Positions 43,347 to 44,450 of a stretch of DNA of 64,000 bases are shown here, piece after piece. Source of the stretch: a virus (Duplodnaviria; Heunggongvirae; Uroviricota; Caudoviricetes); the IMG/VR virus record IMGVR_UViG_2724679293_000007, positions 1-64,000 of that record; one strand, given 5' to 3'. Position numbers and translations under genes: made by a program. Positions within the stretch are counted from its first letter, which is position 1, and each line of letters begins with the position of its first letter. Below the pieces are notes generated by a model. It was given only the letters and a program-made list of their open reading frames with translations, was not told where the DNA came from and made no database searches.

Positions 43347-43353
43347 AAAGATA

Positions 43354-43381
43354 AAGCCATCGATAGAAATATTGATGGCTT
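43354..43381. terminator. hairpin terminator (AAGCCATC-12nt-GATGGCTT)
   Basis: 8-bp stem between convergent U' and the acetyltransferase gene; U-rich on minus side. Confidence 0.45.
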
Positions 43382-43389
43382 TATGTACT

Positions 43390-43962
43390 CTATTTATACA
43401 ATACAACACCGCTCTTTTTAGTAATATATGTGCAGTTCGATGGTATATCTTTATTTATAAAAGACATTGCACCTATTTTTACATTATCCCCAATTTTACG
43501 TGATAATCCAATGATGCAACAATTAGCTCCGATATCAACGTTATTACCAATTTTTACTCTTGAACCAGGCATGTCACCATCTATCTGTCCAATGGTAGTA
43601 TTCTGCCGTAACACCAGATTTTCACCAGCATCAACAGCAAAATGAACAACAATTCCAGCATGATGGGGAATTGTTAACCCTTTTCCAATATTTGCGCCCA
43701 ATCCAATTTCACAACCAAATTTGTTAATTATTTTACTGTTTAACTTTTTGGCTGCTTTCTTATGTAATTTATTACCATTAATATGCATTTCATTAGCCAA
43801 TCTCCACCAGAAAAGAAAATTCCGATTGCGCTGCCTCTTCTCTCTTAATAGTCGCCAAACATCCATTTTTTCACGCCTGATGACTTCAGCCATCCAATAG
43901 CTCAATAGAGCTTTTGAATTCCCAAAGATGACAAAGTGAATAGCTATTAAGTAACATAACAT
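43390..43962 (-). CDS. hexapeptide-repeat (LbH) acyl/acetyltransferase, AT-rich cargo inside the invertible segment
   Basis: 190 aa; repeated [LIV]-G-x-x-x-x hexads (IGLGANIGKGLTI, VKIGNNVDIGANCCIIG, IGDNVKIGAMSFI) as in CysE/WcaB-type transferases; GC far below backbone. Confidence 0.7.
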   Translation of the reverse strand: MLCYLIAIHFVIFGNSKALLSYWMAEVIRREKMDVWRLLREKRQRNRNFLFWWRLANEMHINGNKLHKKAAKKLNSKIINKFGCEIGLGANIGKGLTIPHHAGIVVHFAVDAGENLVLRQNTTIGQIDGDMPGSRVKIGNNVDIGANCCIIGLSRKIGDNVKIGAMSFINKDIPSNCTYITKKSGVVLYK

Positions 43963-44414
43963 ATTGCAATTGCCTATATTTTTGGTTTCTATGGTTATAT
44001 ATCGACATTATAATTAAAACAATAAGCATCAGTGTGTTACTGCGTTCCTGCTAAACTAAACCAACGCACAATGTAAACACAAATATTAATTTTAAACTGA
44101 GCACTAAAGGGATGTCAATATTGTATTGATAATAAGTTGCAAGATTGCCACTACTTTCTATATTTTGGGATGCAATAATTTATATTTTATCTATTCAGTG
44201 TTTCTTTGGGCTTATTAAGGATGTCATTATTAATTTATGGCTTGCCATTTCTATACATATCTATTAAAAATTTTGATTTGTCTATTGAAAATAGATTTAA
44301 TTGATTGGTTTAATTTTTACATGACGCTCTTTAATATAACTTCAGGTATATTAAAGCACATGCATTATATCCAGAGAAAATCAACAAAATTGTTAGCCCT
44401 TATTTGTTGGGCTT

Positions 44415-44446
44415 ATAGATATTAATTAAGGCCCGATCCCGGGCCT
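44415..44446 (-). terminator. intrinsic terminator after U (AGGCCCG-ATCC-CGGGCCT)
   Basis: 7-bp GC stem immediately downstream of U stop, followed on minus strand by A/U-rich tract. Confidence 0.5.
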
Positions 44447-44450
44447 TTCC

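Follow-up and report, generated by a model that had tools for sequence, protein, structure and literature searches.

The window analysed here is a 64,000-nucleotide stretch of a Caudoviricetes genome (IMG/VR record IMGVR_UViG_2724679293_000007, positions 1 to 64,000), and it carries a P1-like invertible C segment in which a gene for an acetyltransferase of the left-handed beta-helix (LbH) type lies between two fibre-assembly genes (Table 1). The two cix sites are inverted relative to each other and mark the outer limits of 602-nt inverted repeats, the right core matching, and when P1's annotated crossover is transferred by homology the segment extends from 41109 to 46550, that is, 5,442 bp between the crossover points compared with 4,256 bp in P1. 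The first-pass annotation had proposed a segment longer than that of P1, bounded by these same cix sites, and both the excess length and the sites are borne out, the left one being identical to cixL; the inverted repeats that it gave as 0.58 kb are likewise present, with a measured length of 602 nt. The gap between the U' and U positions amounts to 1,104 bp here versus 28 bp in P1, and its composition, 27-36% G+C in 300-nt windows, stands apart from the 40-52% recorded in 4-kb windows over the whole 64,000 nucleotides. The acetyltransferase gene is the one substantial open reading frame in this gap, and the AT-rich block with a minus-strand LbH gene of 190 codons that had been described between U' and U is thus indeed there.

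Table 1. Features of the enlarged C segment and its surroundings (positions within the window)
Feature	Position	Strand	Basis and remarks
cin, serine DNA invertase	40544..41104	+	Pfam Resolvase E 3.7e-51 and HTH_7; 96.6% identity to P1 cin
Left cix site	41096..41121		Crossover between 41108 and 41109 by P1 cixL homology; sequence equals the annotated P1 cixL region
Left inverted-repeat arm	41098..41699		602 nt; 98% complementary to 45960-46561
Alternative fibre C-terminus, silent; tail-collar, lambda-Stf / P2-H type, in place of P1 Sv	41152..42768	+	ORF; Pfam Collar domain
Block common to P2-like prophages, with fibre tip, tfa and the acetyltransferase gene up to about codon 25	42155..43888		blastn
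tfa, fibre-assembly gene of the silent cassette	42768..43346	+	Pfam Caudo_TAP E 3.5e-42; tfa in the JL22 annotation
Hairpin where tfa and the acetyltransferase gene converge	43351..43384		Likely two-way terminator (predicted); RNA folding
LbH acetyltransferase, serine-acetyltransferase fold ('sacF' in JL22; phrog_2154)	43390..43962	-	190 aa
First 25 codons of the acetyltransferase gene and AT-rich leader	43889..44423	-	535 bp; only on P1-like elements (blastn; IMG/VR)
Promoter-like TTGACA-18-TAAAAT	44089..44118	-	About 125 nt upstream of the ATG; 11/12 consensus matches; prediction
P1 native U/U' intergenic spacer with GC-rich hairpin 44428-44447	44424..44450		P1 homology restarts at 44424
Expressed fibre-assembly gene, P1 U' homologue	44451..44984	-	Pfam Caudo_TAP E 4.7e-36; ~91% identity to the P1 U'/Sv' region
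Tail-fibre gene S, currently assembled: Sc and variable part homologous to P1 Sv'	44987..47998	-	1,003-aa ORF; homologous to P1 and P7
Right inverted-repeat arm	45960..46561		602 nt; right cix core 46538-46563, crossover between 46550 and 46551

Comparison with reference loci by blastn divides the segment into four parts, of which the first (41098-41703) is a P1-type inverted repeat, the second (42155-43888) is common to P2-like prophages, the third (43889-44423) comprises the leader and the start of the acetyltransferase gene, and the last (44424-46561) corresponds to U'/Sv' of P1 at 91% identity. From this partition it follows that the fibre now joined to Sc is the homologue of P1 S'. The expressed genes had earlier been named Sc-Sv-U, and this naming has to be reversed, since the expressed fibre is the Sv'/U' homologue and it is the silent cassette that adjoins the acetyltransferase; the accompanying statement that the acetyltransferase gene is co-directional with the expressed S and U genes is correct as to strand and fails only in what it called them. 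The second part matches one P2-like prophage (L002) with 95.4% identity over 1,735 bp and, from 42813 onwards, a second one (L003) with 93.3% identity, and the silent fibre tip matches lambda stf-tfa at about 89% identity. On the evidence of these alignments, P1 Sv-U is replaced by a cassette of the lambda-Stf / P2-H type, which apparently brought the acetyltransferase gene along. Lambda-type phages possess an identical type of fibre tip together with tfa and have no acetyltransferase, and the enzyme is therefore not needed for that fibre.

The enlarged segment still exists in both states. Among near-identical plasmids in which cin is adjacent, four show the orientation of the window and eleven are flipped, and the segment of phage JL22, which is 98.7% identical over the whole 5.46 kb, lies in the opposite orientation; this is evidence from the population of elements rather than from an inversion assay.

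The acetyltransferase gene is convergent with tfa and ends 43 bp from its stop codon. The hairpin between the two genes folds at -14.8 kcal/mol on the minus strand (z -4.2), where it is followed by a U-run, and at -20.5 kcal/mol on the plus strand (z -8.5). The hairpin at 44428-44447, on the far side of the leader, is modest (-15.1 kcal/mol, z -2.0 and -0.9 on the two strands), has no U-tract on the minus strand, and is recognized as P1's native U/U' hairpin because P1 homology restarts at 44424. Of the pair of flanking hairpin terminators proposed initially, the one at 43351-43384 is therefore strong on both strands, and the other belongs to the native spacer of P1 and is modest. No strong Shine-Dalgarno sequence precedes the ATG at 43962. 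Alternative starts were considered. A start at M33, as in the 158-aa annotation of JL22, was rejected because homologues have no methionine at this position and residues 1-32 keep a conserved pattern down to about 55% identity, and a start at M24 was rejected because JL22 has isoleucine there. Residues 1-32 are, moreover, modelled at pLDDT 94-97, and the full frame of 190 codons appears to be real. It is open in all seven copies compared, among which pairwise dN/dS ranges from 0.04 to 0.21 at dS values of up to 0.43; judged by these substitution ratios, the gene is under purifying selection. A degraded remnant devoid of the catalytic residues, the outcome that would have spoken against the original proposal, is not what is found here, the gene being intact and its catalytic histidine conserved.

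The leader is of a different kind from the gene body. Together with the first 25 codons it was found by blastn in 65 of 5,426 complete E. coli genomes, plasmid-borne every time, and neither this search nor a pattern scan of IMG/VR disclosed a source outside P1-like contexts. No credible match was returned by an Rfam scan of the 535 bp at a permissive threshold, and Tandem Repeats Finder reported no tandem repeats in 43300-44500. The longest open reading frame in the leader has 62 aa on the T-rich strand, and the small frames of this region were judged to be compositional artefacts. The promoter-like sequence listed in Table 1 has both of its hexamers conserved in the diverged copies of JL22 and pO26_10153_1, and an exact-pattern scan located it in four IMG/VR contigs, all P1-like. 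Matches of this type are, at the same time, expected in AT-rich DNA: nine were found versus 6.6 expected, which is no enrichment over shuffled sequence, and the site is treated here as a prediction.

The product is matched to phrog_2154, a family without a known function (E 5e-85). Pfam Hexapep matches are weak and similarity to enzymes of the CysE/WcaB/EpsC type is clear, which agrees with the CysE/WcaB-like LbH product that had been anticipated. The best NCBIfam matches are EpsC (73 bits, cut-off 150), cysE (TIGR01172, 61.4 bits, cut-off 210.65) and WcaB (TIGR04016, 56 bits, cut-off 194.65; NF007564, 56.7 bits, cut-off 196), all far under their cut-offs, and NF008349 is matched with 37 bits against a cut-off of 397. 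The closest solved structures and the best sequence matches in the PDB are true serine acetyltransferases. An AlphaFold model has high confidence along the entire chain and shows an LbH domain preceded by five N-terminal helices across about 82 residues, and in this model the chain stops a few residues past the beta-helix, with no C-terminal tail of the CysK-binding kind. The SATase_N domain (PF06426) had no match at E values up to 0.01. All 105 homologues share H100, which lines up with the catalytic histidine of the 'LDHATG' motif, and E85 aligns with its partner aspartate in 'VDIHP'. In E. coli CysE these catalytic residues are H158 and D143, and serine is bound by D157, R192 and H193. The counterpart of D157 is P99, H193 falls in an alignment gap, and the position of R192 is occupied by arginine here and varies across homologues. 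Taken together, alignment and model suggest a short serine-acetyltransferase-like enzyme that lacks the serine-binding residues.

The extra block is absent from reference P1, P7 and D6, so that comparison across P1-like elements confirms both the added length and the added content, and the gene does not occupy this position in reference P1, as it would have had to if the proposal were mistaken on this point. The arrangement is, on the other hand, already known from databases and from the literature, and the earlier statement that it had not been described cannot be upheld. Phage JL22 has the 1,104-bp block at 99.2% identity, with the gene annotated as sacF, a serine acetyltransferase, and vB_EcoM-Ro157c2YLVW has it at 98.7%; the block is found in 35 PLSDB plasmids and, complete with its leader, in the P1-like plasmids of the 65 complete E. 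coli genomes mentioned above, pO111_2 included. According to the description of JL22 (JL22 paper, 2022), the one publication found to mention the gene, U and part of S have given way to sacF and tfa for an unknown reason, the function of sacF being unknown as well. In JL22 and in P1-like plasmids such as pO111_2 and pO26_10153_1 the block is 95-99.5% identical and lies between two fibre-assembly genes in the same way, nothing essential differing from the window; cin and one fibre are missing from some of the plasmids, which are thus locked derivatives. The constant part of S was detected in 295 genomes at a coverage of at least 80% and in 527 at any coverage, and from these numbers and the 65 genomes with the block it can be derived that roughly 12-22% of P1-like plasmids carry it. 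The gene body is more widespread, being present in 530 of the 5,426 complete E. coli genomes (~10%), mostly in chromosomal prophages.

These prophages are largely P2-like, and their cargo gene encodes a protein with about 90% identity to that of the window, adjoins tfa and the fibre tip in the same manner and is likewise convergent to tfa. The first ~25 codons and everything upstream differ: a 157-bp spacer follows a tail gene there, where the P1-like elements have the 535-bp AT-rich leader. In E. coli, Salmonella, Proteus and Xenorhabdus the closer relatives stand alone, at the ends of prophages or beside integrases, and the phage-borne clade (at least 55% identity) is always solitary and lacks a glycan partner in E. 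coli; a GT25 glycosyltransferase accompanies the gene beside a fibre gene in Xenorhabdus prophages. The family is conserved across Enterobacterales, Orbaceae and Pseudomonas, its catalytic and structural residues being invariant. Its neighbourhoods were surveyed in 80 species-level loci, in which the adjacent ORFs were clustered and the cluster representatives annotated with Pfam. Neighbours of the Caudo_TAP family occur in six loci and GT9 heptosyltransferase-family neighbours in five, in Orbaceae and relatives, and in Rahnella the gene has a conserved chromosomal site between a transporter and a diguanylate cyclase. A NeuB-family synthase is nearby in seven loci, mostly of Pseudomonas or Halopseudomonas (within 80 bp in five of the seven), and most of these also have genes for a PseG-like GT28 protein, a cytidylyltransferase-aminotransferase and an LPS kinase; the acetyltransferase gene, here a relative of 41-48% identity, sits between the LPS kinase gene and the NeuB/PseG-like/cytidylyltransferase cluster. 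No cysteine-synthesis gene was noticed among the 25 most recurrent neighbour clusters of the 80 loci, whose sequences were read by eye. Because LPS and nonulosonic-acid genes recur in this way and cysteine-synthesis genes do not, the acceptor is more likely to be a sugar or glycan than serine, and for the same reason the automatic label "serine acetyltransferase, cysteine biosynthesis" is probably wrong, although all public annotation names the gene a serine acetyltransferase. The neighbourhoods favour this conclusion by way of relatives with 41-48% identity, whose substrate may differ from that of the phage enzyme.

The reading that we consider probable on balance is that the block represents a phage 'moron', a self-contained and non-essential piece of cargo, which came with the replacement fibre cassette, would serve in O-acetylation at the cell surface and would be transcribed from its own promoter independently of inversion. 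Two traits of morons can be recognized directly, namely the absence of the block from P1, P7 and D6 at the same position and a base composition unlike that of its surroundings. The source would be P2-like prophages of E. coli, in which fibre tip, tfa and acetyltransferase gene stand side by side, and recombination within fibre-gene homology may have placed this block where P1 has Sv-U, the other joint being P1's own U/U' hairpin. The homology between the two kinds of element is a matter of observation; transfer from P2-like to P1-like elements, in that direction, is suggested by relative abundance only. The product is predicted to be a soluble enzyme of ~190 aa, in which a short helical N-domain precedes a left-handed beta-helix of the serine-acetyltransferase/WcaB fold with its acid-His pair intact, which may use acetyl-CoA to O-acetylate a sugar or a lipid- or nucleotide-linked glycan intermediate, most likely related to LPS, rather than L-serine. 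The surface of the lysogen would thereby be altered, with lysogenic conversion or masking of a receptor against superinfection as possible consequences. Expression would be driven by the predicted sigma-70-type promoter in the AT-rich leader and would end at the hairpin past the stop codon, and with both elements inside the segment the gene would be neither turned on nor silenced by Cin inversion in the lysogen. A more specific version of this scheme, in which the enzyme O-acetylates the very surface glycan (for instance the LPS core) that the carrier phages use as receptor, so that the masking gene travels with the receptor-binding cassette, appears unlikely.

Several other explanations have to be weighed against a cargo gene for surface O-acetylation. 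The gene could encode a true, minimal serine O-acetyltransferase, an auxiliary metabolic gene that would raise O-acetylserine and so boost cysteine synthesis or induce the CysB regulon, be it in lysogeny or in the lytic cycle. Its best HMM matches, the EpsC and cysE models, the conservation of the catalytic histidine and its acid partner, and the unanimous public annotation would all be in keeping with such a function; the score of 61 bits versus a cysE cut-off of 211, the missing SATase_N domain and CysK-binding type of tail, the loss of counterparts to D157 and H193 with a non-conserved R192 position, and neighbourhoods rich in LPS and nonulosonic-acid genes rather than in genes of cysteine synthesis make it, in our judgement, rather unlikely. 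Cargo hotspots of temperate phages often hold anti-phage or counter-defence genes, and a single-gene factor of this type, acetylating a small molecule or a protein instead of a surface glycan, would suit a solitary AT-rich gene that occupies a classic cargo position, at the end of a fibre operon or beside integrases, in many temperate phages. Its purifying selection is compatible with such a role, as is its survival in intact form in a degraded P2-like prophage of E. coli O157:H7. Against this, none of the 5,027 PADLOC defence-protein models matched at E values up to 1, the chromosomal relatives reside in sugar-biosynthesis clusters, and the study of P2 hotspots, which dealt with a different locus, makes no mention of acetyltransferases, and we regard a defence function as quite unlikely. 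That the block is an inert passenger, a leftover that has ceased to be expressed or needed, could be argued from the lack of a strong Shine-Dalgarno sequence before the ATG, from the silencing that AT-rich DNA of such kind typically undergoes and from the fact that no published expression data for the gene were found in the literature. It is highly improbable in view of the open frames and low dN/dS of all copies compared, of a family conserved down to its catalytic and structural residues across Enterobacterales, Orbaceae and Pseudomonas, and of a confident full-length structural model.

The first-pass annotation had pointed to yet another connection, the coupling of the acetyltransferase gene to the host-range switch with which it is flipped. 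In the functional form of this idea Cin inversion alters its expression along with the fibre type, so that modification of the surface or of the fibre would match the fibre in use. The position of the gene lends this idea some appeal: in the present orientation it follows S-U with no change of strand, the flipped state would put it antisense to the fibre operon, and both orientations are encountered among near-identical plasmids. As the segment lies now, nothing but a hairpin that lacks a minus-strand U-tract separates U from the gene, so that late transcripts of the operon could read through into it, and this is the only orientation-dependent effect that we see as possible. The promoter-like site and the terminator hairpin, however, both lie inside the segment and flip together with the gene; in pO26_10153_1, pO111_2 and two IMG/VR contigs the gene has stayed intact although cin, lydC, the second fibre and most of U are gone; and most copies belong to P2-like prophages, in the examined regions of which no invertase was seen. 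Coupling of the gene to inversion therefore looks incidental, and with lambda-type phages carrying the same fibre tip and no such gene, a functional link to the switch is very unlikely.

The present segment resembles the C segment of P1, the G segment of Mu, the P segment of e14 and the Min system of p15B in having an invertase of the Cin family together with cix sites and inverted repeats by which fibre C-termini are swapped. The segments of reference P1 and P7 consist of fibre and fibre-assembly genes only, whereas here the gene for a non-fibre enzyme is contained within. In the e14 segment, inversion by PinQ is reported to create a protein that blocks adsorption of T2 (PMC12529663); the product StfE2 is created by inversion, and the acetyltransferase is not. 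Closest in function, by analogy, may be NeuO, a likewise prophage-encoded O-acetyltransferase of the LbH type that acts on polysialic acid in E. coli K1 (prophage CUS-3; PMC3046976). The gene of the window shares with it a place next to the fibre genes of a temperate phage, at 43 bp from the tfa stop codon; it stands outside the NeuO subfamily, and the 5' tandem repeat tract by which NeuO is switched on and off was not found in 43300-44500 by Tandem Repeats Finder. The neuO gene, too, is a neighbour of the gene for the receptor-binding tailspike; its expression is variable, and its product acts on a surface polysaccharide. WcaB (colanic acid) and EpsC-type enzymes are similar in size, in the combination of a short helical N-domain with an LbH domain and in the E/D...His pair; they differ in that their genes reside in polysaccharide clusters, whereas the present gene is solitary and phage-borne and scores far under the cut-offs of their models.

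As a discovery the locus carries little weight, given that the arrangement is in public records and in a paper, that a cargo gene after the tail-fibre assembly gene is a standard feature of phage genome architecture, and that the gene looks like ordinary cargo rather than part of a new inversion-controlled system. Functional data were not found in the literature on P2 hotspots, CP-933T, prophage serine acetyltransferases or P1-like invertible segments, and the value that is left lies in a testable hypothesis on an uncharacterised gene present in about one-tenth of complete E. coli genomes, strains of O157:H7, O26 and O111 included. Should the enzyme act on the receptor of its own carriers, an exclusion gene and a receptor-binding cassette would form one unit exchanged among P2-like, P1-like and other phages, located in P1-like elements inside the host-range switch. 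If acetylation of a surface glycan is indeed its function, the chemistry that underlies serotyping, the susceptibility of lysogens to phages and the host range of P1-based transduction and delivery vectors would all be affected.

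In three of the P2-like prophages that carry the acetyltransferase gene (L002, L021 and L022; ~6773-12358), the baseplate and fibre genes run opposite in direction to the tail genes from sheath to gpU, and the acetyltransferase gene therefore lies on the same strand as gpU and directly downstream of it, at a distance of 157 bp. Co-transcription of the acetyltransferase with the tail genes could thus occur in these prophages. The L022 prophage is degraded, with an IS3 remnant in place of the fibre gene and a frameshifted tape-measure gene; despite this decay, its tfa (fibre-assembly) and acetyltransferase ORFs are undamaged and identical to the copy of a pig-gut isolate (L003). 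Near acetyltransferase homologues in two unrelated genomic islands, a different, second gene for a hexapeptide-repeat protein is found 0.2-4 kb away.

Coordinates of features at loci carrying the acetyltransferase or its homologues
Feature	Locus	Position
Second hexapeptide-repeat gene	L015 and L016 (Cronobacter)	5772-6299
Second hexapeptide-repeat gene	L018 and L019 (Salmonella)	9333-9959
Degraded P2-like prophage carrying the acetyltransferase	L022 (E. coli O157:H7 Rafaela_II chromosome)	4410-10077
Deletion-bearing locus	L020 (pO26_10153_1)	5108-5373

In the window itself, the Rfam family RF02111 ('IS009') is matched full-length at 43111-43309 (+), scoring 192.7 bits where the gathering cut-off is 117. 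All of the match falls within tfa, in the 3' half of its coding sequence; RF02111 may derive from a prophage fibre-assembly gene rather than represent a free-standing RNA. Elsewhere, G+C content reaches its window minimum at the 4-kb scale (40.1%) at 56001-60000, which may be another acquired region.

A recurrent deletion, found in the P1-like plasmids pO26_10153_1 and pO111_2 (L107) and in two IMG/VR contigs (L103 and L104), fuses the middle of the fibre-assembly gene U (window ~44633) to the lydA region (window ~40128). The acetyltransferase is kept, and the loss of the invertase gene cin, lydC and one fibre leaves the P1-like plasmids of STEC serogroups O26 and O111 with a single, fixed fibre type.
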